NCBI GenBank assembly: GCA_964399015.1
Contig: CAYNOY010000006.1
Location: 1 to 35,267, forward strand
DNA: 35,267 bases
Source of the DNA: Candidatus Woesearchaeota archaeon
GTDB lineage: Archaea > Nanobdellota > Nanobdellia > Pacearchaeales > GW2011-AR1
Direction: 5' to 3'
In this document: in pieces, positions 8,283 to 35,266 of the stretch
How the letters are laid out: every line of letters starts with the position of its first letter
Numbering within the stretch: the first letter of the stretch is position 1
Notes under the pieces: generated by a model
Database searches by the model: none
What the model was told of the DNA's origin: nothing
The model's input: the letters and a program-made list of their open reading frames with translations, nothing else
Program-made: the position numbers and the translations under genes

Positions 8283-9815
8283 TTAGAGTTTGTATCTAAT
8301 TTTGTCGTACCATGCCTTAAATGAAACTGGCATTGCTCGATAAGTTGGTTTGAGTATTCTTTCCCTTATTTTATCTGATAGGCTTATGAAGATTAAAGTG
8401 ATTTTTGTTGGTGTTTGATTTTGGAGATTTCTTTTTATTCTTTGAGGTTGGAGAAGAAAATTAATTATGAAGTTTGGTGTGGGTCCAAATCTTTTTTCTG
8501 TTGCTGAACCTCGCATCATGTTTAATATGAGGTTGAGGTACATGTTTTTCTTTTTTAGTTTGATGTGGGCGGCCCTGTCCCAATAATTGAGATTTGCTGC
8601 AGAGTCTTCTTCATTTTTTATTATTCCGTCTTCTTTTGCTTTGTAGTATAATGGGGTGGAGGTGAAGAAAACTAAATTGTTCACTGAGAGAAAATAAGGT
8701 TTGGGTAATTTTTGTAAGAGTCGAATCATGTTGATTACGTCTTCTGGTTTTTCGTAGGGATTTGTGGTTATGACATCGTACATTACGGTTAATTTATTTT
8801 TGTAATTGTTAATAATTTTTCCTGCATTCAGAACCTGGGCATCAGTTTGATTTCTGTGATAAATTTCTTTGTTTACTCTTTCTACTGCTTGGATTCCTAT
8901 TATGATATCTGTGCATCCTGCATCTGTGAGGAGTTTTATTTTTTCGTCTGAAACTGTGTGAGGGTCTGCTAAACATTTGAATCTCATGTTTACTTTGTCT
9001 TTATATAGTTTACAGAATTCTTTTATTTGAGTGATTGGTCTTAATGAAAAAGTATCATCTCTGATGTCAAAGTAAGATAATGTTTTGAATCTTTTTTTGA
9101 GTTTTACTATTTCGTTGATTATGTATTCTGGAGAGTGCCATCTTAGAATTTGTTTTCTTTTTCCTTCATAAAGCTTGTTTAACTGGTCGTTTGAACAGTA
9201 GGCACAACCATAGGGACAACCCCTTCCAGTTAGGAAAAATATTTGTCCATCTAAATCTGATTCTTGGAACGGTGTTATGTGGTTATTGTTTAAGATGTAG
9301 TGATCTTGTATTTCATAGTCTACAGGAGGGAGTTCGTCGAGATTGTCGATTAGGGGTCTTACTGGGTTTTTTGTGAGCTTAGAGTTTTCTTTTATCCAGA
9401 GGTTTAGAATGTTTGTTATAGGTTTGTTCTTTTCTATTGCTTCTGCTAATTCGGTTATTGTTTCTTCTGCTTCCCCTACACAGACGAGGTTGCAGTGATT
9501 GATGCATTGTTCTGGACTGAGGGTTGCATGAATTCCTCCCCAAACTAGGGGAATGTTTAGTTGTTTGAGTTTATTGATTACTTGGATTGCTCTTGGAGCT
9601 GTTGATGCGAAGGAATTTATTCCGATTAGATCTGAGTTTTTTGCTATTGAGAGTATTTGGTTTAGAACTTGTTGAGGATAAGATTTTGTGTAGTCTTCTG
9701 TGAACTTGAGGAAGATTATTTTTACTTGATGTCCTTTTGATTTGAGGATTGAAGAGATTGTTCTGATGCCCTGGTCTGATGGAAATGTGGCTGTGGAGAT
9801 TAGAGTTATTTTCAT
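8283..9815 (-). CDS. B12-binding-domain radical SAM enzyme
   Basis: N-terminal cobalamin-binding-type domain (IGINS, WGGIHAT, CVGEAE), GRGCPYGCAYC (CxxxCxxC), RDDTF. Confidence 0.88.
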   Translation of the reverse strand: MKITLISTATFPSDQGIRTISSILKSKGHQVKIIFLKFTEDYTKSYPQQVLNQILSIAKNSDLIGINSFASTAPRAIQVINKLKQLNIPLVWGGIHATLSPEQCINHCNLVCVGEAEETITELAEAIEKNKPITNILNLWIKENSKLTKNPVRPLIDNLDELPPVDYEIQDHYILNNNHITPFQESDLDGQIFFLTGRGCPYGCAYCSNDQLNKLYEGKRKQILRWHSPEYIINEIVKLKKRFKTLSYFDIRDDTFSLRPITQIKEFCKLYKDKVNMRFKCLADPHTVSDEKIKLLTDAGCTDIIIGIQAVERVNKEIYHRNQTDAQVLNAGKIINNYKNKLTVMYDVITTNPYEKPEDVINMIRLLQKLPKPYFLSVNNLVFFTSTPLYYKAKEDGIIKNEEDSAANLNYWDRAAHIKLKKKNMYLNLILNMMRGSATEKRFGPTPNFIINFLLQPQRIKRNLQNQTPTKITLIFISLSDKIRERILKPTYRAMPVSFKAWYDKIRYKL

Positions 9816-9836
9816 GATTGGGGAAAATGGGGTTAG

Positions 9837-9856
9837 TTTTTAAGTTTTATTGAGGT
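9837..9856 (-). promoter_or_regulatory. BRE/TATA-like promoter of the radical SAM gene
   Basis: The minus strand reads ACCTCAATAAAACTTAAAAA; the CTTAAAAA box starts 29 nt upstream of ATG 9815. Sixteen bp are identical to 25894-25909. Confidence 0.55.
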
Positions 9857-9972
9857 GAGGGCTTTGTGGATATAATAAGGAATTTTATTGAAGTGAATGT
9901 TTATAATTGGCATTGTATTTCTTCTAAATATAGTATTTTATGGGAGTTAAATTTAAAAGGCATCTAGTTTAA

Positions 9973-12852
9973 ATGATACTAGATAAAATGGATGAAATGG
10001 ATAAGTTTGTAAGTCTTGACAACATTAAAAATGTTAACAGGAATGAAGTAAAAAAACAGGAAAATTTAGAAAATAGGGATGCTAGTAAGACTAATCTAAA
10101 TGTTAGGTCTGTTGTTCATCGGATAAAACCTGAAGATGCGTTGATTAGAGAACGAAAAGAAAATGTAATTAATTTTTTTAAGAATAAACAAACCTGGGTT
10201 ATTGGATTGTTAATTGTTGCTTTAATTTTGGGAGTCTATATCCGAAGTATGCCTATGCATGATCATGGGGGAAATCCTGGATTATGGAATGTGGCAACAA
10301 ATGATTGGACATTGGGACCTGATTTGGATCCTTGGTTGTTTTTAAGAATTGCAGAGGACATTGTTAATGAGGGTTCTATTCCTGAAAGAGATGAGCTTAG
10401 AAATGTTCCCCTGGGGTTTGATAATTCCAAAGAAACTCAGGTTCTCCCATATATGATTGCATATACTCATTATTTTTTTAATATTTTTGGAGATTATCCC
10501 ATTGAATTTGCAGGAGCAATCTTTCCAGTAATAATGTTTGGGCTAACTATTATTGCATTCTTTTTATTTGTGAGAGAAATTTTTGTTAGAAAATCTAAGA
10601 AAAGTAAAATTAATGCAAATATTATTTCGTTGCTATCTACTTTTTTTATGATTGTTATCCCGGTTTTTCTATCTAGAACTATTGCAGGGATTCCTGAAAA
10701 AGAATCTGCGGTGTTCTTTTTTATGTTTCTTGCTTTTTATTTATTTTTAAAAGCATGGAATTCGGCATCGATTAGGGGGGGGATTATTTTAAGTATTTTA
10801 GCAGGGATTGCAACTGCAGGGGCAGGATTAGTTTCTGGACTTTTTATCTATGTTTATATCTGCATTGCTTTTTCGGGGTTTTTAGCATTTATATTAAACA
10901 AATTTAAGAAAAAAGAAATCATTGTTTATTTTTGTTGGTGGATTATGGCGGCCATATTATTATCAACAATTCCAGGTAAGGTAAACTGGTATTCTTTAAT
11001 TTCTTCATTAACTCTGATTCCTGCATTTATTTTGTTGGGGGTTTTAATTTTTCATAACATTTTATGGAACACAAAACTTTCAGAAAATAGTTATATTAAA
11101 AAAATCAGGCTTCCTAAAACAATTATCTCATTAATTATTGCACTACTAATAATGTTCTTAATTGTTATTATTTTTAATCCTTCACTGTTAATTGAAAAAA
11201 TTAAAGTAGTCCAGCAAATTTTATTCAAACCAATAACTGGACGATGGAATACTACTGTTGCGGAAAATAGGCAACCCTATTTTAGTGAATGGGCGGGTAA
11301 TTTTGGACCGTTTGTTAAGGAGGTTCCCTTATTTTTTTGGTTGTTTTTTGCAGGATCTGTTGTCTTGTTTAAAAAAATGATTAATCCGATAAAAAATAAG
11401 GATGCATTAGTTTTGACAGGACTTTATATTTTTGCATTTATCGGGCTAGTATTTTCAAGATATTCTAGCTCAAGTTTATTTAATGGAGAAAATATTCTTA
11501 GTAAACTATTTTATTTTGGAACTTTATTCTTGTTTTTTGTAGGTTTTATCTACTATTATATCAAATATGATAATGCCGGTAATGAAAATTTTGAAAAAAT
11601 AAATTTTGGATACATCTTGTTATTTATGTTGTTTGGATTCACATTATTTTCTGCAAGAAGTGCGGTCAGGTTAATTATGATTCTTGGACCCATTTCCACA
11701 ATTTTTGTTTCCTACCTTATTGTTGAGTCTATAAATAGATTTAGGAAAACTCGGGATGAGACATTAAAAATCTTAATTGGGGCATTGGTGATTTTAATTT
11801 TAGTGTGCAGTATTTTTAGTTTTTGGACATTTTATAATACTGTGAAAGTTCAGGCATATAATTTTGTTCCATCCCATTATAATCAGCAATGGCAAAATTC
11901 TATGAGGTGGGTGGATGATGAAACTCCTCAGGATGCAGTTTTTGCTCATTGGTGGGATTATGGTTATTGGCTTCAGAGTATTGGGAATCGTGCAACGGTC
12001 TTAGATGGAGGAAATGCAATTACTTATTGGAATTATTTGATGGGAAGGCATGTTTTAACTGGTGACAATCAAGAAGATGCTCTTGAATTTTTATACAATC
12101 ATGATGCAGATTATTTGTTGATAGATTCTAGCGATATTGGTAAGTATGGTGCTTTTTCAAGTATCGGGAGTGATGAAAATTATGATAGGTATTCTTGGAT
12201 TGGAACGTTTTTACTTGATGAATCTCAAACTCAAGAAACTCAAAATCAAACTTTGTTGGTTTATCCTGGAGGAATTGGGTTGGATGAAGATTTGATAATT
12301 GAAGAAGATGGGAAAGAGATTTTGCTTCCAGGTCAAAATGCAGGTGTTGGAGCAATAATTATTCCATCTAAACAAGATAATGAGGTCATGGAATTTATGC
12401 AACCTTATGCCTTAATTGTATACCAGGGGCAACAACATAAAGTTAATTTGAAATATTTAGAGGTTGGAGGCCAATTTGTTGAATTTGATACTGGAATTGA
12501 GGCTTGTGCATTTGTCTTCCCTAAGCTTGATGTGAGCGGACAAGGAGTATCTCAAAATCCAATCGGTGCTGCGATGTATCTTTCTCCAAGATTGCTTAGG
12601 GGATATTTGGTCCAGAAATACATCTTAGATGATCCTTTTAATAATTTTCCTAATTTTAAATTAGCGCATACTCAATCTAATTTAATTTTAGAGAATTTAA
12701 GAAATCAGGGAATGGACCTTCCAGATTTTGTTTATTATCAGGGCCTGCAGGGACCCATAAAGATTTGGGAGATTGAATATACAGGTAATGAAAAAGAAAG
12801 AGAAGACTATCTAGATAAAGATGCTACAAAATATTTGAGTTGGAATTTATGA
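9973..12852 (+). CDS. aglB: Archaeal oligosaccharyltransferase AglB (STT3 family)
   Basis: Many TM helices, DxDPW loop, TVAE, WWDYG, DGGN and DK-type DSSDIGK motifs. The true start may be ATG 9988 or 9997; TTTAAATG lies 29 nt before 9997. Confidence 0.95.
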   Translation: MILDKMDEMDKFVSLDNIKNVNRNEVKKQENLENRDASKTNLNVRSVVHRIKPEDALIRERKENVINFFKNKQTWVIGLLIVALILGVYIRSMPMHDHGGNPGLWNVATNDWTLGPDLDPWLFLRIAEDIVNEGSIPERDELRNVPLGFDNSKETQVLPYMIAYTHYFFNIFGDYPIEFAGAIFPVIMFGLTIIAFFLFVREIFVRKSKKSKINANIISLLSTFFMIVIPVFLSRTIAGIPEKESAVFFFMFLAFYLFLKAWNSASIRGGIILSILAGIATAGAGLVSGLFIYVYICIAFSGFLAFILNKFKKKEIIVYFCWWIMAAILLSTIPGKVNWYSLISSLTLIPAFILLGVLIFHNILWNTKLSENSYIKKIRLPKTIISLIIALLIMFLIVIIFNPSLLIEKIKVVQQILFKPITGRWNTTVAENRQPYFSEWAGNFGPFVKEVPLFFWLFFAGSVVLFKKMINPIKNKDALVLTGLYIFAFIGLVFSRYSSSSLFNGENILSKLFYFGTLFLFFVGFIYYYIKYDNAGNENFEKINFGYILLFMLFGFTLFSARSAVRLIMILGPISTIFVSYLIVESINRFRKTRDETLKILIGALVILILVCSIFSFWTFYNTVKVQAYNFVPSHYNQQWQNSMRWVDDETPQDAVFAHWWDYGYWLQSIGNRATVLDGGNAITYWNYLMGRHVLTGDNQEDALEFLYNHDADYLLIDSSDIGKYGAFSSIGSDENYDRYSWIGTFLLDESQTQETQNQTLLVYPGGIGLDEDLIIEEDGKEILLPGQNAGVGAIIIPSKQDNEVMEFMQPYALIVYQGQQHKVNLKYLEVGGQFVEFDTGIEACAFVFPKLDVSGQGVSQNPIGAAMYLSPRLLRGYLVQKYILDDPFNNFPNFKLAHTQSNLILENLRNQGMDLPDFVYYQGLQGPIKIWEIEYTGNEKEREDYLDKDATKYLSWNL

Positions 12853-12897
12853 TTTATGTTTGTTAAAGTTTAAAAAGATTAAAAAATCGGATAGATT

Positions 12898-13911
12898 ATG
12901 GAAATATTGTTATTTTGTTCTGTTGTGGTAAGTTTTTTGTTTACCCTATTTATGCTCCCTAAATGGATAAAAAAGTGTGGTCAGGTTGATTTATTGTGGG
13001 AAGATATGAATAAATTTAATCGTCCAAGAAATGTCGCTTCTTCGGGAGGAATTGTAGTTGTCTTGGCATTTATTATAGGGGTTTTAAGTTATATTGCTAT
13101 TAGAACTTTTATTCTTCAGGTGGATGGCATTACTACAAATGTTTTTGCATTACTGGGAGTTATTTTAATTTTGGCTATTGTGGGGTTAGTAGATGATTTG
13201 TTAGGTTGGAAACATGGAGGATTATCCATGAGGTTTAGATTATTTCTTATTATAATGTCCTCTATCCCCCTGGTTGTAATCAATGCAGGGAATCCAGTCT
13301 TAAATATCCCATTTCTAGGATATGTAAATGTGGGCTTGCTGTATCCACTGGTTTTAATCCCAATAGGCATTACTGGAGCAACTGCAACGTATAATTTCTT
13401 AGCAGGATTTAATGGTTTAGAGGCAGGACAAGGAATTATAATAATTGGTTTTTTATCATTTATTGCATATATAACTGGTTCTCCTTGGTTAACTGTCATT
13501 GGTTTGTGTATGGTTGCATCGTTACTGGTTTTTTATTTTTATAATAAATATCCTGCAAAGGTTTTTCCAGGAGATATCTTGACTTATGCAATAGGCTCTT
13601 TGATTGTCAGCATGTCTATTTTAGGTGATTTTGAGAGGGTGGCTTTGTTTATTTTTACGCCCTACATAATAGAAACTTTTTTGAAATTGAGGGGTCGACT
13701 AAAAAAACATTCTTTTGCTAGGGTAAATTCTGATGGAAGTTTAGAAATGCCATATAACAAAATATATAGTTTAACTCATTTATCTCTTTTTATTCTTAAA
13801 AAATTTAAAAATAAAGTTTATGAAAAAGATGTTGTTTATTTAATATTTATATTTCAAATAATTGTTTGTTTAATTGGATTGTTAATTGCAAATAGGTGGA
13901 TGTTCCTATGA
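12898..13911 (+). CDS. aglH: UDP-GlcNAc:dolichol-phosphate GlcNAc-1-phosphate transferase (AglH/Alg7/GPT; MraY/WecA superfamily)
   Basis: EDMNK, GLVDD, YNFLAGFNGLEAG and NKYPAKVFPGD motifs; polytopic; directly downstream of aglB; TATA-like box at 12869. Confidence 0.85.
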   Translation: MEILLFCSVVVSFLFTLFMLPKWIKKCGQVDLLWEDMNKFNRPRNVASSGGIVVVLAFIIGVLSYIAIRTFILQVDGITTNVFALLGVILILAIVGLVDDLLGWKHGGLSMRFRLFLIIMSSIPLVVINAGNPVLNIPFLGYVNVGLLYPLVLIPIGITGATATYNFLAGFNGLEAGQGIIIIGFLSFIAYITGSPWLTVIGLCMVASLLVFYFYNKYPAKVFPGDILTYAIGSLIVSMSILGDFERVALFIFTPYIIETFLKLRGRLKKHSFARVNSDGSLEMPYNKIYSLTHLSLFILKKFKNKVYEKDVVYLIFIFQIIVCLIGLLIANRWMFL

Positions 13912-14351
13912 GCTCTTTAATGGAAATAAGAAGATTTGTAACTTTTTGTTTTGTTGGTGGAACTAGTGCCTTGATTCATTTGATTATTTTTAATATCTTT
14001 TTTTATTTGTTAGCATTTGAAATGTTGATTGGAGGAATTAGTTTAAATTTTATTTTATCTACAATAATCGCCATATTTATTTCTGTAATATATAATTTTA
14101 CAATGAATAAGAATATAACTTTTTCTGCCAAATCTGGAAAGGCGCATAGACAGTTTGTAAAATTTCTAATCCTCTATAGTGGGTCTATTTTTATTGGTTC
14201 TGTTGTTAATTTTACAATAATATCGTTAGTTGAAGAGACTATTCTTACGGCAAATATTGCTACTATCGCGGGCACGTTGGCTAGTATTCCAATTAGTTTT
14301 TTTGGTTCTAAGTTTTGGGTTTTTAGAAAAGAGATGATTCTATTGCGTTGA
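13908..14351 (+). CDS. GtrA-family small flippase-like membrane protein
   Basis: RFVTFCFVGG, YNFTMNKNITF, QFVKF and SFFGSKFWVF with four hydrophobic segments. Start set at ATG 13908 (ATGA overlap; SD-like AGGTGG at 13894-13899). Confidence 0.85.
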   Translation: MSSLMEIRRFVTFCFVGGTSALIHLIIFNIFFYLLAFEMLIGGISLNFILSTIIAIFISVIYNFTMNKNITFSAKSGKAHRQFVKFLILYSGSIFIGSVVNFTIISLVEETILTANIATIAGTLASIPISFFGSKFWVFRKEMILLR

Positions 14352-14532: not shown

Positions 14533-14684
14533 TTAGTTTTAGTATTATTAAGGCCCTTGAAGAAACTACTTTTAATGCAAATATTGCTACTTTTTCTGGA
14601 ATTCTTATAAGTATTCCTTTTAGTTATTTTGGTTCGTTATTGTGGGCATTTAAAAAGGGTTCTGAAAAAATTATTGTGTCATAG
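14529..14684 (+). pseudogene. 3' remnant of a second GtrA-family gene (not in ORF track)
   Basis: LVSFSIIKALEETTFNANIATFSGILISIPFSYFGSLLWAFKK aligns to VVNFTIISLVEETILTANIATIAGTLASIPISFFGSKFWVFRK of the intact GtrA. In-frame TGA at 14517-14519, no ATG, stop TAG at 14682-14684. Confidence 0.8.
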
Positions 14685-16209
14685 AGTCATTAATAGAAAT
14701 TGATTGATTTTTTAAATGATATATTATAACTATTGGTTGTTCTCCCCTAAAAAATGCCTTAGCAACATCTAAATTATTTCTTTCTACATATGAATTGGTC
14801 CAAGCGGGTTGATTTTCATAAGCAGAAACCATGAGGTATTTAATCTTTGGATTATTTTGTAATAGATCTTCAAATTCTTGTTCTGTCTGGGGATAACTAA
14901 CTGATTCCTTCTTGCTATAAAAAAGTACCTGGATTACACTTTTTGTCACTAGGAGGTCTGAGGGGGGCGTATTGTCCCTATACCAATATCCTGCATCCCT
15001 TATTTCGGAATAAGAATCTACTTTTACTCTTATTAAAGAGTCTGTTGAGCTAAGTTGAAAAAATCCAATGTAAGCTAATAATGCTATTAAAATTAATACT
15101 GCAAAAAATTTATTTTGTTTTTTAGTAATTCTAAATAATCTATAGATAAATGCGCTGGAAATAATAAAAACTGCAGGCATTGCATTAATGATATATCTGT
15201 TTTCATTGTGACCTATTAAAGTACTTGCAAGAACGATCGGAATAATAAATATTAGGAATAAGAATAAGAGTTTTTTGAGTTGTTTGTCACCCTTTTTGAT
15301 AAGAATATCAAACCCCAAGATCAATGGATACATCATAAGTAATCCTAGAATAAAAATAAGGAGTAGCGTCCATGAGAGATATGTTGGAAATAGATCAAAA
15401 TAACCTGAGGTTCCCTGATAAAATCTTTGAAAATTAGTCATTCCGGCACTTGTAGGGCCTACTTGTGCGGATCCTTGTGCTAAGACAAATCCTCCAAATT
15501 CAATATATCCAAAAATGAGGTAGGGAGAAATAACTAAAAAAAAGATAATTCCGGATATCCAGAGTTCTTTTCTTTTTAAAAAATTAAATTTTTCAGTTAT
15601 TAGGAGATAAATTAAGACTGCCATTAAGAAGAACCCTGTAGATTGTTTAAATGCCGTTCCAATGGAAATTAAGACTGCCCCAATATAAAGCGCTTTGTGA
15701 GAACCGTACTTAAAATACCTATAAAAATAGAGTGCTGAAAAAATAAAAAAAGTTAGAGAAGGCATATCTACTAAAAGTCTTGAAGTGAAAAACATATTTA
15801 AATAAAAAACTGCCATAAGATACGCGGCAATCAAGCCTATTTTTTTATGATATAATTCTTTTCCTAAAAGATATACTCCTATTACTGAGGATATGGAGAA
15901 AATTAAAAGGAGGAATCTTGGGAAGAATAATGAGGGAGATAACCTAAAGAATAATGAAGTTACAAATGAGAGTAGAACTGGCCTCACAGGGGTGAATTCA
16001 TACTCGAGGCCAAATGCAAATCTGTTTGCAATATTCATATATTCTGCTTCATCCCACCATAGGGGTTGATTATAGGTAAGGGCAAAATAATAAATCCTTA
16101 TCGCTATTGCTAAAATTAAAATTAAAATGAAGGTTGCATTGTACGGGTTTCTTACCCATTTAATTATCTTATTTTTTCTATCTTCTAAACTTTGTTCAGA
16201 GGTTTCCAT
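14671..16209 (-). CDS. GT-C superfamily membrane glycosyltransferase (ArnT/PMT_2-like, lipid-phosphate-sugar donor)
   Basis: LWWDEAEY in the first external loop, RP motif, many TM helices, ENRY, small soluble C-terminal domain. Confidence 0.85.
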   Translation of the reverse strand: METSEQSLEDRKNKIIKWVRNPYNATFILILILAIAIRIYYFALTYNQPLWWDEAEYMNIANRFAFGLEYEFTPVRPVLLSFVTSLFFRLSPSLFFPRFLLLIFSISSVIGVYLLGKELYHKKIGLIAAYLMAVFYLNMFFTSRLLVDMPSLTFFIFSALYFYRYFKYGSHKALYIGAVLISIGTAFKQSTGFFLMAVLIYLLITEKFNFLKRKELWISGIIFFLVISPYLIFGYIEFGGFVLAQGSAQVGPTSAGMTNFQRFYQGTSGYFDLFPTYLSWTLLLIFILGLLMMYPLILGFDILIKKGDKQLKKLLFLFLIFIIPIVLASTLIGHNENRYIINAMPAVFIISSAFIYRLFRITKKQNKFFAVLILIALLAYIGFFQLSSTDSLIRVKVDSYSEIRDAGYWYRDNTPPSDLLVTKSVIQVLFYSKKESVSYPQTEQEFEDLLQNNPKIKYLMVSAYENQPAWTNSYVERNNLDVAKAFFRGEQPIVIIYHLKNQSISINDSMTQ

Positions 16210-22993: not shown

Positions 22994-23096
22994 TTTAGTT
23001 TAGATTTAATTAAATTTTTAACCAAATTTATTGGGTTTTATTCTTTCTGAAATTCTAATGGACATTTATTTAAGGTTATTTAAGAGTTATTTTTAA

Positions 23097-25868: not shown

Positions 25869-26040
25869 ATTCACCGAAAAATAATCGAGTATATAAGTTT
25901 TATTGAGGTAACTACGTTTTTATAGGATAATAATTATGCTCATTAGGCCTTATTTATTTGGATTATTCGATTATAAAAACTGAGATACCTAGATATTTAA
26001 AATCGGTAATCTTTAAAAACCCTTTTGGGTTAATTTTTTT

Positions 26041-27492: not shown

Positions 27493-29560
27493 AGTTTTAA
27501 TTATTGGTGCTGATGGAAATCTTGGAACTCAATTAAAGAAAGATTTTTCGTATCATTACGATGTTGTTGGAACCTGTTATGAAAATTCTGTCAGGGGTCT
27601 GAGCTATCTGGATATAACTGATAGAGAGAAAGTGAGAGACCTTTTAGAAAAAGAAAATCCTGAAATCGTAATTTTGACTTCTGCATTAACAAATGTTGAA
27701 GAATGTGAACTTAATCCAAAAAAAGCGCAAAAAATAAATGTAGGGGGTGTGAAAAATATTGCGGAGTTTTGTGAGGGCCGGAAGTTGGTATATTATTCAA
27801 CAGATGCCATTTTTGATGGCATTAAAGAAGAATATGTTGAGGAAGATATTCCAAATCCATTAAATGTTTATGGGAAAACTAAATTAGATGGAGAAAAATA
27901 TGTTCAAGGTCTGAATGATTTTTTAATTATTAGGACTTGTAGACTTTACGGGTTAAGAGGAACAAAATTCATTAATACTCTTATTTCTACACTTGGGGAT
28001 GGAAATAATATAAATGTTCCTGAAAATTCTTCAGGTAGTCCTAGCTTTATAGGGGATGTTTCTAATGCCACATTGAATCTGATTAAAAAAGAAAGAACGG
28101 GAATATATCATATTGCAGGACCTAAATGTTCGCTTGATGAAACTGCATTTATAATTGCAGAGGTATTTGGTTTTGATAAAAATTTAATCTCAAGCGTTGA
28201 TAAGAATTTTTTTAATAACAATGTTAAAAGGGCGAGTGTTGTTCTTAATACTGATAATATTAAAAAGGAAGGAATTTTTATGCGAGCTATGGAAAAAGGT
28301 ATAGAAAAAATAATGGAGGATTTGTTGAATACGAAATTCAATGAAATTAAATCTTGCAGGGCTTGTGGGAGTGAGGATCTTTTTCCATATTTAAATTTAG
28401 GGGACATGCCTCTTGCAAATAATCTTTTAGATAAAAAACAGGACATATTGGATGAAGAAAAATTTCCATTAAAAGTTCTTTTATGCAAGAATTGTTTTTT
28501 TTCCCAATTAAGCATAATTGTCAAACCTGAGGTTATGTTTCGAAATTATGTTTATCGTTCTTCAATCTCTGAGACTTTTAAATCTCATTGTAAGGAACTA
28601 TCTGAAGAATTAGATAAAGATCTTGAAAGTAATGATTTGGTGGTAGATGTTGCAAGTAATGATGGTTGTTTGTTACGCCCATTTCAAGCTAATGGGAAAA
28701 GGGTTTTAGGTATAGATCCTGCAATTAATTTAGCCAAGATTGCAAATGAATCTGGGATTGAAACCATTTCAGAATTCTGGAACGAGGAATTAGCCACAAA
28801 AATTCGAGAAAAATGGGGTCCTGCCAAGATTATTACTGCATTTAATGTTTTTGCCCATGTAGCAGATATTAAATCTTTTGCAATGGCTGTAAAAATTTTG
28901 CTTGCGGAAGATGGTTATTTTATTATAGAGAGCCCTCATGCATTAAGCCTATTAAAAAATGTTGAGTTTGACACAATTTACCATGAACATTTATCCTACA
29001 TTACATTAAGTCCTTTAAAAATATTTTTTGAAAAGTTAGGCCTTAGAATTTCCAAGATTAAAAAATTTGATATTCATGGCGGTTCAATAAGAATTTATAT
29101 TGAACATGATTCTCAAAATCGGCAAGATGGGAGTGTTGAAAAGGTAATAAATGAGGAGGAAAAAGAGGGCTTAAATAATTTAGAGTTATATGAAAATTTT
29201 AAAAATAATGTTGAGAGTCTTAAAAAAGAACTTGTAGAAAAATTAAAGGAAATAAAGGATGAGGGAGGACAAATATCTGTTTTTGGAGCCTCTGCGAAAG
29301 GTAATACTCTTTTAAATTATTTTAATATTGATAATGAGATGATTGATAATATCTTGGATGATACTCCTGAAAAACAAGGCAAAATTGCTCCAGGTGTTCA
29401 TATTCCAATTGTTAGTTCTGATTTTTTAAATGAAAAAACTCCAGATTATCTCCTGATACTTGCCTGGAACTTTGCTGAAGAAATAATGAAAAAAACAGAA
29501 AATTATCAATTAAACGGCGGAAAGTATATTATACCAATTCCGAAATTAAAAATAATTTAA
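27482..29560 (+). CDS. rmlD: Fusion of an RmlD-like dTDP-4-keto-sugar reductase and an NDP-hexose C-methyltransferase (TylCIII/TcaB9/NovU family)
   Basis: N-terminal half: IGADGNLG, STDAIFDG, YGKTK. From about aa 290: CRAC...CKNC Zn site, DVASNDG, NVFAH, FDTIYHEH, HGGSIR, GASAKG, LAWNF..EI. No internal stop. Confidence 0.9.
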   Translation: MGIKVLIIGADGNLGTQLKKDFSYHYDVVGTCYENSVRGLSYLDITDREKVRDLLEKENPEIVILTSALTNVEECELNPKKAQKINVGGVKNIAEFCEGRKLVYYSTDAIFDGIKEEYVEEDIPNPLNVYGKTKLDGEKYVQGLNDFLIIRTCRLYGLRGTKFINTLISTLGDGNNINVPENSSGSPSFIGDVSNATLNLIKKERTGIYHIAGPKCSLDETAFIIAEVFGFDKNLISSVDKNFFNNNVKRASVVLNTDNIKKEGIFMRAMEKGIEKIMEDLLNTKFNEIKSCRACGSEDLFPYLNLGDMPLANNLLDKKQDILDEEKFPLKVLLCKNCFFSQLSIIVKPEVMFRNYVYRSSISETFKSHCKELSEELDKDLESNDLVVDVASNDGCLLRPFQANGKRVLGIDPAINLAKIANESGIETISEFWNEELATKIREKWGPAKIITAFNVFAHVADIKSFAMAVKILLAEDGYFIIESPHALSLLKNVEFDTIYHEHLSYITLSPLKIFFEKLGLRISKIKKFDIHGGSIRIYIEHDSQNRQDGSVEKVINEEEKEGLNNLELYENFKNNVESLKKELVEKLKEIKDEGGQISVFGASAKGNTLLNYFNIDNEMIDNILDDTPEKQGKIAPGVHIPIVSSDFLNEKTPDYLLILAWNFAEEIMKKTENYQLNGGKYIIPIPKLKII

Positions 29561-29561
29561 A

Positions 29562-30305
29562 ATGAAAGGAATAATTTTGGCAGGTGGAAAGGGAACTAGA
29601 CTGTATCCATTAACTACTGTGACAAATAAACATTTGGTTCCAGTTGGAAAACTTCCAATGATAGAATATCCCTTGCATACATTAAAAAATTTGAATGTTG
29701 ATTCAATAAGTGTAGTTACTGGAGGGGAAAATTTTCAGGACATAGCCCAATATCTTGGTACCTTGCATTCCGAAGACAATTTTTCTTTTCACTATCAATC
29801 TAAGGCTGGGGGCATAGCTCAGGCATTAGCTCTTACAGAATCATTTGTTAAATATGGAAAAATAGCAGTTATATTAGGGGACAATATATTTGAAGAAGAT
29901 TTTTCAAAAGCTGCAGAAATATTTGAAAAATCTGATTCTGGGGCGATGATTTTCTTGAAGGAAGTAAACAATTCTTCGGAATATGGTGTTGCTGAAATTA
30001 TTGGAGGTAAAGTTGAGGGGATTGAAGAAAAACCTAAAATACCTAGATCTAATCTAGCGGTTACAGGATTATATTTTTATGATTCTACCGTTTTTGATAA
30101 GATAAAATTGCTTAAACCCTCTATGCGGGGGGAACTTGAAATAACTGATGTTAATAATATGTATCAAAAAGAGGGGAGATTGTCTTATTACAAATTATCT
30201 GGTTTTTGGGGTGATGCTGGAACTTTTGAAAGTAGGGATTTATGCAATAATTTTGTTAAAGAAAAATTAGAGGCTGAGATAGGTTCTAAACTATCCTTAA
30301 TTTAA
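29562..30305 (+). CDS. rmlA: Glucose-1-phosphate thymidylyltransferase (short RmlA/SpsI-type)
   Basis: GIILAGGKGTRLYPLT, GIAQAL, LGDN, EEKP, AVTGLYFYD, PSMRGELEITD, WGDAGT. Confidence 0.93.
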   Translation: MKGIILAGGKGTRLYPLTTVTNKHLVPVGKLPMIEYPLHTLKNLNVDSISVVTGGENFQDIAQYLGTLHSEDNFSFHYQSKAGGIAQALALTESFVKYGKIAVILGDNIFEEDFSKAAEIFEKSDSGAMIFLKEVNNSSEYGVAEIIGGKVEGIEEKPKIPRSNLAVTGLYFYDSTVFDKIKLLKPSMRGELEITDVNNMYQKEGRLSYYKLSGFWGDAGTFESRDLCNNFVKEKLEAEIGSKLSLI

Positions 30306-30307
30306 GC

Positions 30308-31927
30308 TTACGATTTTGCATTGTTTGAATTAGGTTGAGCCTTTCTAAGCTGGATTATTTTATTTTTAATGGATTTTAATATCATTATGTCATTTTCGTC
30401 AAAGCATCCGGTTATAATTATTAGTAAAAGGTAGGTTAAGGTAAATAAAAATCCTTGTGCAATCAAAGTTATTGCATTAGTTGGCAATATTCTTTTTGTG
30501 AAGGTTATTAATAATGCCGGAATAATTGTTATTAATGCGATTAATATCATTTTTCTTTTTAGAGGGATAATTCCAGAATATTTTTTTGCAATTAACAGAG
30601 ATAAAATGCTCCAAAGAAGGTAACTTATCATTGTCGAAATCGAAGCACCTATAGTCCCTAAGGAATTATCTAAACCAAATATTTTAGGTATCGGAATCAA
30701 AATTATATTAAGCAGAATATTTATTATCGAAATTATGGCTAGATTTGAAAGAACTAATTTGGATTTCCCCCTCATTGATAATAAATTTTCTGAAATTAAA
30801 AAAATTGAGCTAAAAAATATACCTATTGCTAAAAATCTTAGAGGCCATGCTGCGCGAATATACTCTGAGCCAAATAATATATTTATCAGTATTTCTGGAA
30901 ATAAAATTATGATTACAAGTATTGGGAGGTTTAACATAAAGATCCATTTTCCTACCTGCTTGCTTAATCCCTTAATCATATGAATTTCATCCCTTATGTA
31001 CCCCCTTGTTATCATGGGCAAAAATAAATAAATAAATAATTGGGGAGCTATAACTAATAGGAGGGCTATTGGAACTGCAGCATTATATATTCCTACCGCA
31101 GTAGAATTTTTAAAATAACCGATTAATAAAGAATCTGTCCAACCAAAAATAAATGATACTAATCCTACAAAAATCAAGGGCCATGAATAGCTGAATAATT
31201 CTTTTCTAATTTTTGCTTTTGTTTTTTTATCTAAATAAGATTCTTTGAAGACCTCTTTTAGCTTATATTTGCAATAAAGGTATGAGGGAATTAACAATGT
31301 AAATGCCCCTAGAACATATGCAACTATAACTGCATATAAAAGAAATCTCTCGTCCCCATTTAATAGAAAAATTGCTATAATAACTCCAGATGTCAATGTA
31401 ATCAGTTCAACAAAATTAAACAAGATGTTTCTTATAAAAGTGACCCATTGCATTTTTTCATACGCTTGTATAATCGAAATGTATATGGATCCGATACCTG
31501 AGATAGGGATTACCAAACTAAAAATTATCAAAAATAGATTAAGATTAGGGTCATGGAAAATATTTGTAGATATATATTTGGAAAGAATGAGTAATAGTAT
31601 GCATCCAATTATTCCTGAAAAAATTACTGAGTTTACTGCTAGTTTTACAATATACCTTATTTTTTTAATGTCATTTTTTGCACGATAAATAGCGATATAT
31701 CTTACCACTCCTACACATAATCCCAAGGTAAAAATTGCAACCCAACATTCAGTTATTATTGAAGCTAATGTGAATAAACCATAAATTTCTGAATGCATGA
31801 ATCTAGCGATAATCATTCTGAATAGGTAACTCAAAAATTTTGAGAAAATTAATCCAACAAATACTATTATCGAAAACTTTGCCATAGTTTTTAAGGAGTT
31901 ATCTAAAGATTCTTGTTTTTTGTTCAT
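30308..31927 (-). CDS. Oligosaccharide flippase (Wzx/AglR-like, MOP superfamily)
   Basis: Many TM helices; YGLFTLA, YSWPL, TD.LLIG, VGIYNAA; TATA-like box 29 nt upstream. Confidence 0.88.
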   Translation of the reverse strand: MNKKQESLDNSLKTMAKFSIIVFVGLIFSKFLSYLFRMIIARFMHSEIYGLFTLASIITECWVAIFTLGLCVGVVRYIAIYRAKNDIKKIRYIVKLAVNSVIFSGIIGCILLLILSKYISTNIFHDPNLNLFLIIFSLVIPISGIGSIYISIIQAYEKMQWVTFIRNILFNFVELITLTSGVIIAIFLLNGDERFLLYAVIVAYVLGAFTLLIPSYLYCKYKLKEVFKESYLDKKTKAKIRKELFSYSWPLIFVGLVSFIFGWTDSLLIGYFKNSTAVGIYNAAVPIALLLVIAPQLFIYLFLPMITRGYIRDEIHMIKGLSKQVGKWIFMLNLPILVIIILFPEILINILFGSEYIRAAWPLRFLAIGIFFSSIFLISENLLSMRGKSKLVLSNLAIISIINILLNIILIPIPKIFGLDNSLGTIGASISTMISYLLWSILSLLIAKKYSGIIPLKRKMILIALITIIPALLITFTKRILPTNAITLIAQGFLFTLTYLLLIIITGCFDENDIMILKSIKNKIIQLRKAQPNSNNAKS

Positions 31928-32017: not shown

Positions 32018-33637
32018 TTAAGGGCCTGTTTTAAATTCCAGGGTCTTAGGGGTATTTGATCCTTTGTTTTTGAAAAATTTGTTTTTTATAGATTCAATGA
32101 CGATTATATCCTTGTTATCTAGGCATTTAGTAACCAGAATTAGAAGAATATATGTTAATAAAAATAGGGTGCATTCCATAACTACTATAAAAAGACTCTC
32201 TGGCAAAAATCGTTTAACATAAAATAAAATAATTCCAGAAACTAATGCAACTAATGTTATTCTTATCATCTTCATTTTCAGAGGGATTATTGAGGTATAA
32301 TATTTTGATTGAATGGTAGATATCATGCTCCAAAGGCTATATGTAGTCATCGTAGCTATTGCTGCACCCAAAATGCCCCATTTTAATATTAGAAAATAAT
32401 TTAGAATTAAATTTACTAACCCTGAAATAAACATATTAAAAAGAACTGCCTTTGATCTTCCAGCCATAGAAACAAGGTTCTGAGAGATATTAAATATTGA
32501 ATATAAAAATATTCCTATTGCAAGAAATCTTAGGGGAAATTCTGCTGGAAGATAATTGACTCCAAAAAGAAGATTTATGATTGTGCCTGGAAAAAATAGA
32601 ATTAGAATCAAGAAAGGGAGATTAATTAAATAAACCCATTTTGCTACTTGTTTACTTATATCTCTTATCAAGGAGATGTTATTTTTACCGAATTCTTTTG
32701 AGATTAATGGGGAAAATAATTGCATGAATAGATTCGATGAAATAATCATTAATCCTGCGAGGGGGGTTGCAGCATTATAAAGGCCCACAGATTTAGCATC
32801 CATAAGAATACCTATCATCAATGTATCCATTCCAAAAAATAAAAAAGATAATAAATTCACCAATGCCAAGGGCCAGGAATAATAAAATACCTCCATTATT
32901 ACTAATTTTTTGGTTTCTTTGTTAATCTCTGGTTTTATTAATACTTCTTTAATTACATATCTACAAACTAAAAAAGAAGCTATCAGAACAAAAATATAAC
33001 TGAGGTTATATGAAAAAATAATTGCGTTGTTTGTTAAACCTATAAATAACATACTAATTAAAAGTATTATTTTTACAGATTGTGTAAGGATATTTCCAAT
33101 AAAACTATTCCAACCTATTTTTTCGTAAGCTCTTGTGACAGTTAAAAATGCACCTGAAAGTGTAACTAAAGGGATAAAAAATGAAAACCATTTTAAATAA
33201 ATTGATAATTCAGGATTATGAAATAGGTGGATAGAGATCGTTCCTGAAAAAATATATAGCAAAATAGCACATACCATGCTTGTTAAAAATGTAAATAATG
33301 CTACAAACCTAAATAAAAACTGAGCCTTACTTATTTCTCCTTTCCCCCGATAATAAGAAATGTATCTTAACATCCCTTCGTGAAAGCCTAATGAAAAAAA
33401 AGAGGTCAGAAAACTAACTACCATTACTGCAAGAGTAAAAGTACCATATATTTCAATTCCGGAAATAGTCTCAGTAGTGGGAATTCTTGCTATGATTATT
33501 CGATATGCTAATGTCAATATTTTTGAAATAATAATGCTAATCAAGACTATTATTGCAGAATTAAATATAGATTTTAAAGAAAAATGTAGGTTTTCTTCAT
33601 GATTCTTCATTTCCATAGTGTTAAAAATGTGAGACAT
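32018..33637 (-). CDS. Oligosaccharide flippase (Wzx/AglR-like), paralog of the adjacent gene
   Basis: Same motif series (YGTFTLA, YSWPL, VGLYNAA, SKQVAKW, LRFLAIGIF). The start may be ATG 33616 or 33610. Confidence 0.88.
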   Translation of the reverse strand: MSHIFNTMEMKNHEENLHFSLKSIFNSAIIVLISIIISKILTLAYRIIIARIPTTETISGIEIYGTFTLAVMVVSFLTSFFSLGFHEGMLRYISYYRGKGEISKAQFLFRFVALFTFLTSMVCAILLYIFSGTISIHLFHNPELSIYLKWFSFFIPLVTLSGAFLTVTRAYEKIGWNSFIGNILTQSVKIILLISMLFIGLTNNAIIFSYNLSYIFVLIASFLVCRYVIKEVLIKPEINKETKKLVIMEVFYYSWPLALVNLLSFLFFGMDTLMIGILMDAKSVGLYNAATPLAGLMIISSNLFMQLFSPLISKEFGKNNISLIRDISKQVAKWVYLINLPFLILILFFPGTIINLLFGVNYLPAEFPLRFLAIGIFLYSIFNISQNLVSMAGRSKAVLFNMFISGLVNLILNYFLILKWGILGAAIATMTTYSLWSMISTIQSKYYTSIIPLKMKMIRITLVALVSGIILFYVKRFLPESLFIVVMECTLFLLTYILLILVTKCLDNKDIIVIESIKNKFFKNKGSNTPKTLEFKTGP

Positions 33638-33658
33638 ATTTAACTTTTATAATCTGGA

Positions 33659-35266
33659 TCATATTTCTTCCCTCAATAGGTTATCAGTTATACGGAGATA
33701 ATTCCTTCTAAGGAAATCCAGTTTTTCATAATGTTTCATTTCAAAACGATAAATTCTGCTAGATACATAGAATCGCATATGGCATTTCTTACATGACATC
33801 CAGATTACATAATGTAATGAGTTCCTTATAGAGGCATTATTGTAGTTTATTGTTTCATTGCAAAAAGGGCATTTAACGATTAGATTATACCTTTTAGAAT
33901 TTCTTTTTATTTTTTTAATGGGAACTATATATTTGCAATGTTTCCATCTTTGCCCTACAATTTCTTTCTTTAGGTCTTTGATTTCATTATCTGACATATT
34001 ATCTGTCATGTTGAACCAATTAGTATGAGCCATATTATTTTTAATAAACTCCAATTTATCTTTAATAATTCCTTTTTTTATGCATTTATCATATATTTCA
34101 CTTCCGGGATAAGGTTGGATAAATCCTAACTGAACCTGCCCGTTACAACTAGTTTTCCAATATTTTAAAGTCTCTCTTGCAGTTTCTTTTGTTTCTGCAA
34201 TATCTCCAAAAATAAAATTTGCTTGTAACCCTATTTGAACTTCCTGAGCTAGTTTAACGGCATTGTCTATTTCTTGAGGGGTTATTGGCTTTTTCATACT
34301 TTTTAGAACGATTGAGCTATAACTCTCAAAACCTAAACTTATTAAATTGCATCCAGAATCTTTTAAAGTGAAAAGAAGTTCTCTGTCCAAAGTATTAACA
34401 AGAACTTGACAGGACCATACTATTTTTCCTTTTAAATTTTTTGAAATCTCTTTAATTCTTTTGCAAAATTCATACAACCTATCCTTATTGAGAGATAATA
34501 AGTCATCGTGTATTGTTAGTGAATTAATTTGATATTTTTTTATTGCCAAATTTATTTCTTTAAAAATGTCGTCCAAGGATCTTTCCCGATATTTAATACC
34601 GATTGAATGATAGCAAAATGTGCATTGATATGGGCACCCTCTACTACACAATAAGGGGTAGCTTCTTGGAAAGTCTAATTCACAATAATTTGCCCCATTA
34701 GATTGCTTATCCAAAAATTCCTTAAACCCTAATAATTCAAAGTCTGGAAAAATAATTGAGTCTATATCTTTGATTAATTCACGAGGTTTTGTAAGAATTG
34801 TCTCTCCTTGGGCATTGATAAATCCGATTCCATCCACCCTAGAGGGATCTGATTTATTTTCGATAGATTCAATAAGGTCGATTATTGTTATCTCTCCTTC
34901 CCCTACAACAATAAAATTCGGTTTTAGAGATTTTAGAATTAGTTGTGGTTCGCTTGTGATAAGGGTCCCCCCCAGGATAATTTTTGGATGAGTGGGGTGA
35001 TTTTTTACAGCATTTGTAATCTTTTCTATTGCTGAATAACCAATACCAATATGCCCTGAACATACCAAATCATAATTATTTTGATCTAAGGTCTCATTTA
35101 CAAGATCATTAGAAGTTCCATTTAAATGATTTAAATTTAGACAATCTAATTCATAACCTCCTTTTTTTATAACTGTGGCGATATAACTCAATCCTAAGGG
35201 AAAAGAATATTCATAATTAGCCTTGTTGGTAAAATTGTATTTTGGAACAATTAATAAAATTTTCAT
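33659..35266 (-). CDS. B12-binding-domain radical SAM enzyme with a C-terminal CxxC...CxxC extension
   Basis: ILLIVP, FPLGLSYIA, ILGG, VGEGE, SRGCPYQCTFC, HDD, GFES, PYPGS; tail CPFC...CKKC. Confidence 0.9.
   Translation of the reverse strand: MKILLIVPKYNFTNKANYEYSFPLGLSYIATVIKKGGYELDCLNLNHLNGTSNDLVNETLDQNNYDLVCSGHIGIGYSAIEKITNAVKNHPTHPKIILGGTLITSEPQLILKSLKPNFIVVGEGEITIIDLIESIENKSDPSRVDGIGFINAQGETILTKPRELIKDIDSIIFPDFELLGFKEFLDKQSNGANYCELDFPRSYPLLCSRGCPYQCTFCYHSIGIKYRERSLDDIFKEINLAIKKYQINSLTIHDDLLSLNKDRLYEFCKRIKEISKNLKGKIVWSCQVLVNTLDRELLFTLKDSGCNLISLGFESYSSIVLKSMKKPITPQEIDNAVKLAQEVQIGLQANFIFGDIAETKETARETLKYWKTSCNGQVQLGFIQPYPGSEIYDKCIKKGIIKDKLEFIKNNMAHTNWFNMTDNMSDNEIKDLKKEIVGQRWKHCKYIVPIKKIKRNSKRYNLIVKCPFCNETINYNNASIRNSLHYVIWMSCKKCHMRFYVSSRIYRFEMKHYEKLDFLRRNYLRITDNLLREEI

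Follow-up and report, generated by a model that had tools for sequence, protein, structure and literature searches.

Radical SAM genes in a glycan gene island

The DNA analyzed here is contig CAYNOY010000006.1 of a Candidatus Woesearchaeota archaeon (assembly GCA_964399015.1; 966 kb in 76 contigs, 84% complete). This contig, called C6 below, was taken over its entire length of 35,267 nucleotides, which we refer to as the window. Open reading frame (ORF) calling together with Pfam gives 27 genes that occupy ~95% of the contig. Six of the genes encode predicted radical S-adenosylmethionine (SAM) proteins, named A to F (Table 1). They are interleaved with genes for family 2 and family 4 glycosyltransferases (GT2, GT4), a GT-C enzyme, flippases, an AglB-type oligosaccharyltransferase and an AglH-type sugar-phosphate transferase. 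A first-pass annotation of the sequence had listed the six genes with their domains and had described this interleaving. The genes and domains were recovered by ORF calls, Pfam scores above the gathering cutoffs and the CxxxCxxC motif; the interleaving was recovered by Pfam, aglB being weak by hidden Markov model (HMM) but with its WWDYG motif present.

Table 1. Genes of the window, with the basis of each assignment
Feature	Position	Strand	Basis or remark
HAD phosphatase	1074–1649	+	Pfam; sugar-activation module 1074–6064
834-aa protein, two nucleotidyltransferase domains and GHMP kinase	1646–4150	+	HddC/HddA-like, below cutoffs
Short-chain dehydrogenase/reductase (SDR) epimerase/dehydratase	4179–5174	+	Pfam
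Inositol-monophosphatase-family protein	5105–6064	+	Pfam
377-aa ORF	6173–7306	−	no Pfam or NCBIfam match
GT2a glycosyltransferase	7354–8238	−	PF00535 75.4 bits
Radical SAM A: B12-binding-type domain and radical SAM core	8283–9815	−	Pfam; CxxxCxxC at residue 200
AglB-type oligosaccharyltransferase, 959 aa	9973–12852	+	WWDYG at residue 660; weak STT3 HMM matches
AglH/WecA-type polyprenyl-phosphate sugar-1-phosphate transferase	12898–13911	+	PF00953 97.8 bits (cutoff 27)
GtrA-like membrane protein	13896–14351	+	PF04138 60.6 bits
PMT_2 GT-C glycosyltransferase	14671–16209	−	Pfam
GT4a glycosyltransferase	16196–17386	−	Pfam; 14-nt overlap with PMT_2 gene
Radical SAM B: core and truncated, twitch-like SPASM	17492–18517	+	CxxxCxxC at residue 70; Cys pattern CX17C...CX2C
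DUF218/YdcF-like protein, 244 aa	18572–19306	−	no Pfam match; structure atlas
GT2b glycosyltransferase	19490–20371	+	PF00535 62.5 bits
Radical SAM C: core and twitch-like four-cysteine auxiliary site	20383–21513	−	CxxxCxxC at residue 69
Radical SAM D: B12-binding-type domain and core	21500–22993	−	CxxxCxxC at residue 227
Radical SAM E: B12-binding-type domain and core	23097–24569	−	CxxxCxxC at residue 224
GT4b glycosyltransferase	24762–25874	−	Pfam
Deoxythymidine diphosphate (dTDP)-6-deoxyhexose pathway: RmlB-like, RmlC-like, RmlD–TylC3 fusion, RmlA-like	26041–30305	+	Pfam
RmlD fused to TylC3-type nucleoside diphosphate (NDP)-hexose C-methyltransferase	27482–29560	+	PF04321, PF08421, PF08484
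Wzx/MOP flippase	30308–31927	−	PF01943 101.3 bits (cutoff 28.2)
Wzx/MOP flippase	32018–33637	−	PF01943 66.0 bits (cutoff 28.2)
Radical SAM F: B12-binding-type domain and core	33659–35266	−	CxxxCxxC at residue 211

All six radical SAM genes are intact ORFs. The radical SAM domain PF04055 scores 59–91 bits against a gathering cutoff of 29.5, which places each of the six proteins in the superfamily. The B12-binding-type domain PF02310 reaches 52.6, 72.0, 54.3 and 43.6 bits in A, D, E and F (cutoff 32.1), and the SPASM domain PF13186 is found C-terminally in B and C at 48.3 and 36.1 bits (cutoff 21.5). F carries a C-terminal extension that bears two CxxC pairs. Pairwise identity among A, D, E and F is only 23–32%, so the four are not the outcome of recent tandem duplication. 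No membrane segment is predicted in any of the six. As previously described for this locus, the gene for A is divergent from aglB across a gap of 157 bp and F lies directly upstream of the flippase pair, at a distance of 21 bp. C and D share a strand, with D upstream and a 14-nt overlap between the two.

A full SPASM domain, with two auxiliary clusters, is built on a seven-cysteine motif. B and C were considered as full SPASM proteins and rejected, since they have only four to five cysteines in a twitch-like pattern. The cysteines after the core of B are C264, C282/C283, C326, C329 and C341, and those of C are C288, C306, C340/C341 and C344 only. These four are kept across 50 members of the C family, in which C69/C73/C76, the GGE motif, C288, C306 and C344 are invariant and C341 is near-invariant.

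None of the six proteins reaches a curated NCBIfam family cutoff. The best match is that of D to the SD_1168 family, at 224.8 bits against a cutoff of 575. HpnJ is the first- or second-ranked NCBIfam match for A, D, E and F, with 91–185 bits (cutoff 577.6), the AprD4 model gives 101 bits for D (cutoff 500), and the twitch subfamily model NF033640 gives 64–67 bits for B and C (cutoff 170). Assignment of A, D, E or F to HpnJ, BchE, SD_1168, PhpK, HpnR, BzaD, QCMT, KedN5 or AprD4 was rejected because the scores lie under the curated cutoffs.

Comparison with proteins of solved structure gives BtrN as the best relative of B (E 1.3e-12). For D the best single-sequence match is QCMT, the protein of structure 9CCB according to excerpts of PMC12931638. 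A profile of the D family has AprD4 as its best solved match (E 7e-52), in the radical SAM core only (profile positions 167–434), followed by the cobalamin enzymes QCMT and OxsB and also by TsrM, TokK and CysS, likewise cobalamin enzymes; its N-terminal domain aligns with QCMT and OxsB. The analogy to BtrN and the aminoglycoside enzymes made in the first-pass annotation thus holds at the level of nearest solved relatives, B pointing to BtrN and the D profile to AprD4. A profile of the C family matches SkfB best (E 3e-28), then CteB and anSME, and matches the twitch region of BtrN with an E value of 1e-15.

A quick maximum-likelihood tree was calculated from 61 sequences without characterized enzymes, for which the NCBIfam and PDB searches served as a substitute. 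A and E each form their own clade, both with a value of 99 in the Shimodaira–Hasegawa-like approximate likelihood ratio test. D is sister to four bacterial fusion proteins (81) within a seven-member clade (95), F is a long, unplaced branch, and the bacterial sequences are scattered over several clades. At the level of predicted proteins, the six divide into four distinct B12-domain subfamilies and two twitch-like subfamilies, and none matches a characterized family.

C6 accounts for 3.65% of the assembly, yet six of the 16 radical SAM genes (binomial p 1.4e-5) and four of the five B12-domain genes (p 8.6e-6) are located on it, a clustering beyond chance. A blastp search of all ORFs finds C6 to be the sole glycan island of the genome. 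In the rest of the 84%-complete assembly the search detected a single GT2-like ORF, three that are nucleotidyltransferase-like and two that are SDR-like, and no additional GT4, Wzx, PMT_2, AglB or AglH. Nine radical SAM genes outside C6 were classified. Four of them score above curated cutoffs for housekeeping enzymes (NrdG, an MtaB-type methylthiotransferase, Elp3 and TYW1), and the remaining ones have weak MoaA-, viperin/NirJ-, RlmN- and YydG-like matches. A tenth, on contig C10, contains an in-frame stop and was left out of the scoring.

Gene neighborhoods and the D/C pair

The closest relatives of D are bacterial. Proteins from metagenome-assembled genomes of Omnitrophota, Firestonebacteria, Elusimicrobia and Nitrospirae are 47–53% identical to D over ~450 residues, and the best archaeal match among those listed from 200 genomes of the host's class is 42% identical. 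All four bacterial proteins are 788–868 residues long and consist of a B12-binding domain, a radical SAM domain, a second radical SAM domain and SPASM. In the 864-residue Omnitrophota fusion, residues 1–451 align with D (50% identity, E 2e-153) and residues 530–846 with C (42% identity, E 5e-88). C is 41–42% identical to the C-terminal half of the bacterial fusions, and the gene order in the window, D then C, is the domain order in the fusion. As these alignments demonstrate, the predicted proteins D and C correspond to the two parts of a single enzyme that bacteria have in fused form. D and C may also bind each other, a suggestion for which the gene fusion is the basis.

The bacterial fusion genes lie in polysaccharide clusters of the usual Wzx type, with Wzx directly upstream at three of the four loci and a GT4 gene directly downstream at all four. 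Genes for methyltransferases, GT2, GT4 and GT9 come next; at the Nitrospirae locus Wza, Wzc and Wzy are encoded as well. GT4b of the window shows 31% identity over its full length to the GT4 whose gene immediately follows that of the Elusimicrobia fusion, and GT2b is 26–29% identical to GT2s downstream of the bacterial fusions. The fusions score 215–253 bits against SD_1168 (cutoff 575) and belong to no named family.

An exhaustive phmmer search among 1.84 billion cluster representatives returned 85 related to C at E ≤ 1e-30, a small family of mostly stand-alone proteins of 330–420 residues. Some relatives of C are fused to other domains: a B12 radical SAM part precedes C in P0009 and follows it, in reverse order, in P0087; P0012 joins a class I methyltransferase to C; P0078 joins a GT2 to two C-like modules; and P0141 joins a C-like radical SAM part to a polysaccharide pyruvyl transferase. 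In another relative, P0027 (792 residues), the radical SAM/SPASM part has a LAGLIDADG domain upstream of it, a hint that this member of the C family contains an intein.

Of the 200 other genomes of the class, 97 have homologs of D (E ≤ 1e-20), and frequently more than one copy is found within a short distance; of 341 such places, 150 were listed. In the host genus, 29 of 30 genomes carry 2–12 B12-domain ORFs each, and the retention of so many such genes at a genome size of ~1 Mb argues for selection. The arrangement is not particular to this window; it is a trait of the whole class, and it is also found in bacteria. The same interleaving is seen in two islands of more than 35 kb from other families, one with five radical SAM genes amid GT4, GT2 and Wzx genes (G141:C2) and the other with seven B12-type genes and one SPASM-like fragment amid GT2, GT4 and PMT_2 genes (G153:C1).

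Enrichment near glycan genes had been set beforehand as a test of the glycan reading. For each of 29 genomes, the homolog that matched D best was examined with ~1.5 kb on each side (119 ORFs, Pfam), and the control consisted of 29 same-sized regions of contig C1 of the same genomes, at positions fixed beforehand. Genes counted as glycan genes were GT2, GT4, GT9, PMT_2, SDR NDP-sugar enzymes, nucleoside triphosphate (NTP) transferases, DegT, GFO with hexapeptide transferase, and NodU-type carbamoyltransferases. A clear glycan gene lies within ~1.5 kb at 19 of 29 D-like loci and at 3 of 29 controls (Fisher p 2.8e-5); counting glycosyltransferase and GT-C genes alone, the numbers are 13 and 2. 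A further radical SAM gene is adjacent at 11 D-like loci and at none of the controls (Fisher p 3e-4).

The other proteins have fewer relatives in the 200 genomes. Orthologs of A (49–56% identity) occur in eight genomes; GT4 adjoins in six of them, and AglB is divergently adjacent in two, both of one family. Relatives of E (34–39% identity) are present in seven genomes, adjacent to a glycan gene in four and to a radical SAM gene in three. Homologs of B were found at six loci in five genomes, three adjoining glycan genes and three adjoining radical SAM genes. F has no ortholog at E ≤ 1e-70 in the 200 genomes.

Among 30 genomes of the host genus, none carries a close ortholog of C, and the best matches to the D/C cassette (30–33% identity) occur in 2 of 30. 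The cassette is therefore accessory and probably laterally exchanged, within a variable island. The radical SAM genes could be lateral passengers or decaying cargo that share the island by chance, play no part in glycan synthesis and are possibly inactive for want of cobalamin. The missing close orthologs of D and C in the genus and of F in the 200 genomes would fit this, as would the slightly AT-rich composition of the contig (GC content 0.315, genome 0.333 ± 0.010) and the failure to find genes for cobalamin synthesis or BtuC-type import. The six ORFs are intact, however, with conserved cluster cysteines and GGE, and the genes overlap or abut as in operons. The association is also seen again across many families and four bacterial phyla, and B12-domain genes are retained almost throughout the genus. 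We regard the passenger explanation as highly improbable.

Some D-like and related loci have unusual neighbors. At L003 (G082:C4:32093–36337) the D-like gene lies between a class I methyltransferase/CDP-alcohol phosphatidyltransferase pair and a fusion of a cytidylyltransferase with a class V aminotransferase, an arrangement that we take to resemble phosphonate-tailoring (CMP-aminoethylphosphonate) cassettes. Small 4Fe-4S ferredoxin genes stand directly beside B12-type radical SAM genes at L009:1169–1408 and L096:785–1381, the latter fused to a PterinBD–DUF4346 domain; these ferredoxins may be dedicated electron or methyl donors. At L029:2948–3736 (G008:C5) a PNP_UDP_1 phosphorylase-family gene is directly downstream of the D-like gene. 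The PNP_UDP_1 family includes nucleosidases that clear 5'-deoxyadenosine, a by-product of radical SAM enzymes.

A candidate role in glycan tailoring

The six radical SAM proteins are probably accessory glycan-tailoring enzymes of the island, a reading to which we give a probability of roughly 0.7. That they tailor sugars or lipid-linked glycans had been proposed at the outset, and the support it has gained is contextual: the enrichment over controls, the D/C fusion in Wzx-containing clusters and the fusions of C relatives. The reading is thus built on gene context, not on biochemistry. As predicted soluble proteins the enzymes would work on the cytoplasmic side of the membrane, on nucleotide-activated or polyprenyl-phosphate-linked sugars. 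Tailoring would precede flipping by Wzx, which would be followed by transfer by AglB or another GT-C enzyme; the lack of membrane segments in the six fits a cytoplasmic step before flipping. SAM would be cleaved at the [4Fe-4S] cluster, and the resulting 5'-deoxyadenosyl radical would abstract a hydrogen from a sugar carbon that is not activated. The chemistry that we favor for A, D, E and F is that they would then methylate that carbon or rearrange the ring, as in GenK-type C-methylation and HpnJ-type contraction; the alternative is an AprD4-like dehydration without cobalamin. B and C might oxidize or epimerize a sugar carbon as BtrN does, and D and C would act one after the other on a common substrate.

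Known cases in which radical SAM enzymes tailor sugars belong to antibiotic pathways (GenK, GenD1, BtrN, AprD4), apart from one that concerns a lipid-linked sugar (HpnJ). BtrN is a twitch-domain dehydrogenase of the carbohydrate-like 2-deoxy-scyllo-inosamine in butirosin biosynthesis. B and C have a CX(13)GX4C...CX2C pattern after the core, enough for about one auxiliary cluster, but they belong to a primary cell-surface glycan cluster, not an antibiotic one, and C is paired or fused with a B12-domain radical SAM protein. AprD4, the best solved match of the D profile, also acts on a sugar, as an aminoglycoside radical SAM diol-dehydratase. The match of D is confined to the core, however, and the N-terminal domain of D scores above the Pfam B12-binding cutoff. 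The class B enzymes GenK, GenD1, Fom3, SD_1168 and PhpK, cobalamin-dependent methyltransferases of sugars or activated small molecules, resemble A, D, E and F in having a Rossmann-type B12 domain followed by the core. They differ in that a further radical SAM protein is paired with D or fused to it, in a surface-glycan context, and that cobalamin binding is only predicted here. HpnJ, which ranks first or second for A, D, E and F, has a proposed role in turning bacteriohopanetetrol glucosamine into a cyclitol ether by contraction of the glucosamine ring, and thus handles a sugar on a lipid alongside other sugar-handling enzymes (as described in parts of PMC9204698). Its scores here are far under the cutoff, hopanoid genes are not found in the window, and the host is archaeal.

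A different possibility is that the enzymes modify lipids, by methylating, cyclizing or cross-linking the isoprenoid chains of membrane lipids or of a dolichol-type carrier, and merely share a location with glycan genes. In archaea, co-clustered B12-type and SPASM-type radical SAM genes (Gms/Gmm, GrsA/B) do serve the modification of glycerol dialkyl glycerol tetraethers, and 39 Gms and 6 Gmm homologs are reported from DPANN (excerpts of PMC11214058). NCBIfam matches of our proteins include HpnJ, HpnR and the ladderane-lipid B12 family, and genes for LPG_synthase_TM or CDP-alcohol phosphatidyltransferases are present at L003, L008 and L021. The scores are nevertheless far under the cutoffs (for D, 145 against 360 bits for ladderane and 96 against 650 for HpnR), and HpnJ itself acts on the sugar, not on the lipid, in the passages of PMC9204698 that describe it. 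The Gms/Gmm and GrsA/B systems are set apart by their described substrates, which are lipid tails, and by their gene context. No Tes was seen in the 84%-complete genome, in which the best hit (44 bits, cutoff 450) is an unrelated gene. The neighbors at D-like loci are mostly DegT, SDR, GFO with hexapeptide transferase, NTP transferase and glycosyltransferase genes, not isoprenoid genes. The fusion of C relatives to GT2 and polysaccharide pyruvyl transferase, and the absence of membrane segments from the six proteins, also speak against lipid substrates, which we consider unlikely.

Several observations weigh against the glycan-tailoring reading. The proposed chemistry is a guess, as no curated cutoff was reached that would define it. 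At 10 of the 29 D-like loci a clear glycan neighbor is missing (eight ambiguous, two unrelated), the neighbor tallies were counted by hand from Pfam tables, and the p-values overstate independence, as the compared genomes are related. The fifth B12-type gene of the genome (G000:C20:978–2495, +), a long, unplaced branch in the tree, lies outside the island and adjoins a class I methyltransferase gene and a two-component system (response regulator and histidine kinase). By profile, C is closest among solved proteins to the peptide-modifying SkfB, CteB and anSME, and QCMT acts on protein.

These last relatives bear on a further alternative, that the enzymes modify peptides or proteins, either as maturases of RiPPs (ribosomally made peptides with post-translational modifications) or by methylation, thioether formation or epimerization of S-layer or other surface proteins (as with QCMT, PoyC, SkfB and anSME). 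SPASM/twitch enzymes are mostly peptide maturases, and the best single-sequence solved match of D is a protein C-methyltransferase. A metagenome study has read B12 domains in biosynthetic clusters as peptide methylases, which it mentions only generically in the part of PMC9902471 concerned. On the other hand, coding sequence fills ~95% of the contig and no gap next to a radical SAM gene exceeds 192 bp, which leaves little room for precursor peptide genes, although the gaps were not scanned for short ORFs. Pfam finds no protease, RRE or peptide-export gene in the window. Related loci are dominated by glycan genes, and the fusion partners of C relatives are GT2, pyruvyl transferase and methyltransferase. 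We judge peptide or protein substrates to be quite unlikely.

The D-type enzymes might also methylate phosphorus or carbon of a phosphonate or another nucleotide-activated, non-sugar head group (for example one of the 2-aminoethylphosphonate type, with Fom3, PhpK and SD_1168 as models) that is then placed on glycans or lipids. The top NCBIfam match of D, at 225 bits, is a P-methyltransferase family (SD_1168), and locus L003, with its cytidylyltransferase–aminotransferase fusion, methyltransferase and CDP-alcohol phosphatidyltransferase, would suit such a route. The score is well under the 575-bit cutoff, however, and the substrate of SD_1168 is itself described as unknown in a section of PMC9204698. 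No phosphoenolpyruvate mutase was found in the 84%-complete genome, and a context of the L003 kind occurs at 1 of 29 loci only. A phosphonate role is accordingly very unlikely.

Cofactor supply provides the remaining points against glycan tailoring. It had been suggested that a reduced host might have to scavenge both cobalamin and SAM; the small genome and the cobalamin part of the suggestion are supported, and the SAM part is not. The archaeal-type SAM synthetase (PF01941) was not found in the genome, but a bacterial-type MetK is encoded at G000:C12:5645–6055 (−; PF02773, E 1e-69), so scavenging of SAM is not required. A search for SufBD in this 84%-complete genome gave no match, and in the genus SufBD is patchy, with 6 of 18 genomes having it. 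Of two NifU/IscU-type genes in the genome, one (G000:C11:20464–20829, +) has an in-frame TAG, which could reflect a pseudogene, a sequencing error or recoding.

Cobalamin genes were surveyed in 31 genomes, comprising the host, 18 genomes of its genus and 12 of its order. CobS and BtuC-type permeases were found in none of the 31, energy-coupling factor (ECF)-type transporters not having been searched, and a PduO-type adenosyltransferase was found in one. Cobalamin, if used, must be scavenged by the host, judging from these predicted gene contents. Its use is itself uncertain. AprD4-type proteins, which have a similar N-terminal domain, do not bind cobalamin, and homologs of AprD4 and ArsL fall within the B12 radical SAM similarity network without cobalamin binding (both according to extracts from PMC12931638). 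Cobalamin use by A, D, E and F is therefore unproven; the initial designation as B12 radical SAM enzymes holds for the B12-binding-type domain, and cobalamin dependence is a prediction.

Searches of full text, supplements aside, returned no publication on radical SAM enzymes in archaeal N-glycosylation, in DPANN glycan islands or on the fused enzyme. Nor does any of 12 listed papers on AglB and N-glycosylation mention radical SAM. This agrees with the opening remark that such chemistry was not known to have been characterized for archaeal N-glycans. For primary cell-surface glycan pathways, too, no report of radical SAM sugar tailoring was found in the full-text literature. In the main text of a 2026 review on B12 radical SAM enzymes, a word-start search for polysaccharide, glycan and sugar gave no occurrence. 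The new aspect of glycan tailoring by these enzymes would be that radical SAM sugar chemistry operates in primary surface-glycan pathways instead of antibiotic ones, with a paired or fused architecture that we did not find described. If the tailoring role is correct, it would represent a new class of chemistry for archaeal N-glycans and bacterial surface polysaccharides. It would also offer defined candidates for enzymology, above all the 864-residue bacterial fusion and its split archaeal form, and a possible nutritional dependence with a bearing on symbiont–host interaction, given several putative cobalamin enzymes in genome-reduced archaea in which CobS and BtuC-type importers were undetected.

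A wider proposal is that paired or fused B12-type and twitch radical SAM proteins form a family, in archaea and bacteria, that installs undescribed sugars in surface glycans. As a whole this is tentative, and we would sooner doubt it than expect it to hold. The sugars would be C-branched, ring-contracted, deoxy or keto, and would occur in N-glycans of DPANN-type archaea and in O-antigen-like polysaccharides of Omnitrophota, Elusimicrobia, Firestonebacteria and Nitrospirae. The 2–12 genes per ~1 Mb would then amount to a "radical glycan toolkit" that varies and serves in contact with hosts or in escape from viruses, and the surface coat would depend on cobalamin from neighbors.

AglB, other island genes and the host

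The product of 9973–12852 has the catalytic motif WWDYG after ~13 hydrophobic segments. Its domain matches lie close to the thresholds (PF21436, 23.3 bits against 23; PF02516, 22 against 24.5; Pfam E 1e-4), and TIGR04154 (archaeo_STT3) gives 74.8 bits against a cutoff of 450. By these predicted features it is a divergent member of the AglB/STT3 family. Homologs of AglB (E ≤ 1e-10) occur in 132 of the 200 related genomes. D-like genes and AglB are both present in 79 genomes, D-like genes only in 18, AglB only in 53 and neither in 50 (odds ratio 4.1). In at least 23 of the 79 genomes, no more than 20 kb separates AglB from a B12-type gene, and in at least 17 no more than 10 kb; these are lower bounds as the counts derive from 150 of the 341 D-like places together with the A-like places listed.

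The locus had been described as an aglB N-glycosylation locus, and a link to AglB in particular was not supported: 18 of the 97 genomes with D-like genes have no AglB match, 53 genomes have AglB without a D-like gene, and at the bacterial loci with the closest D and C homologs the scanned ORFs include no STT3-family gene. The link is to surface-glycan clusters generally, not to AglB specifically. Since STT3 was not found among the scanned bacterial ORFs and the window has a second GT-C enzyme (PMT_2) and two Wzx flippases, the target may be the N-glycan, another surface glycoconjugate or both.

The first genes of the window form the sugar-activation module. The 834-residue protein scores 195 bits against HddC (cutoff 300) and 193 against HddA (cutoff 600). 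With these enzymes of the GDP-heptose pathway among the best matches, positions 1074–5174 may encode a heptose-type activation route; a GmhA-like isomerase was not found in the window by Pfam and NCBIfam scans. The ORF at 6173–7306 gives a weak NUDIX-like lead from a low-confidence model in the structure atlas. The predicted fold of 18572–19306 matches DUF218 clusters with template modeling scores of 0.73–0.80, one of them an Omnitrophota DUF218–GT4 fusion cluster. By domain score the product of 12898–13911 is predicted to be of the AglH/WecA/MraY type, its sugar specificity aside. In the dTDP-6-deoxyhexose pathway, the rmlD model scores 189 bits (cutoff 224). The fusion of RmlD, a dTDP-4-dehydrorhamnose reductase, to TylC3 implies that a conventional route to a C-branched 6-deoxyhexose is already present in the island, beside the radical enzymes.

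The host is archaeal, as the archaeal/eukaryotic ribosomal protein L21e is present in its genome; the assembly contains no 16S rRNA. Control regions of genomes of the same class contain PolD DP2, fibrillarin/Nop, RtcB/archease and class III signal peptides, and all 200 sampled genomes of the class are 0.5–2.1 Mb in size. From these archaeal markers and small genomes, it is reasonable to call the class "DPANN-like". Positions 20383–24569 of the window were found only in DNA runs labeled "salt lake metagenome", with no RNA run among the runs listed. Over the whole window (1–35267) the GC skew is 0.22–0.46 under plus-strand genes and only ~0 to −0.1 under minus-strand genes. This asymmetry exceeds coding-strand bias and may be a replication-strand effect.

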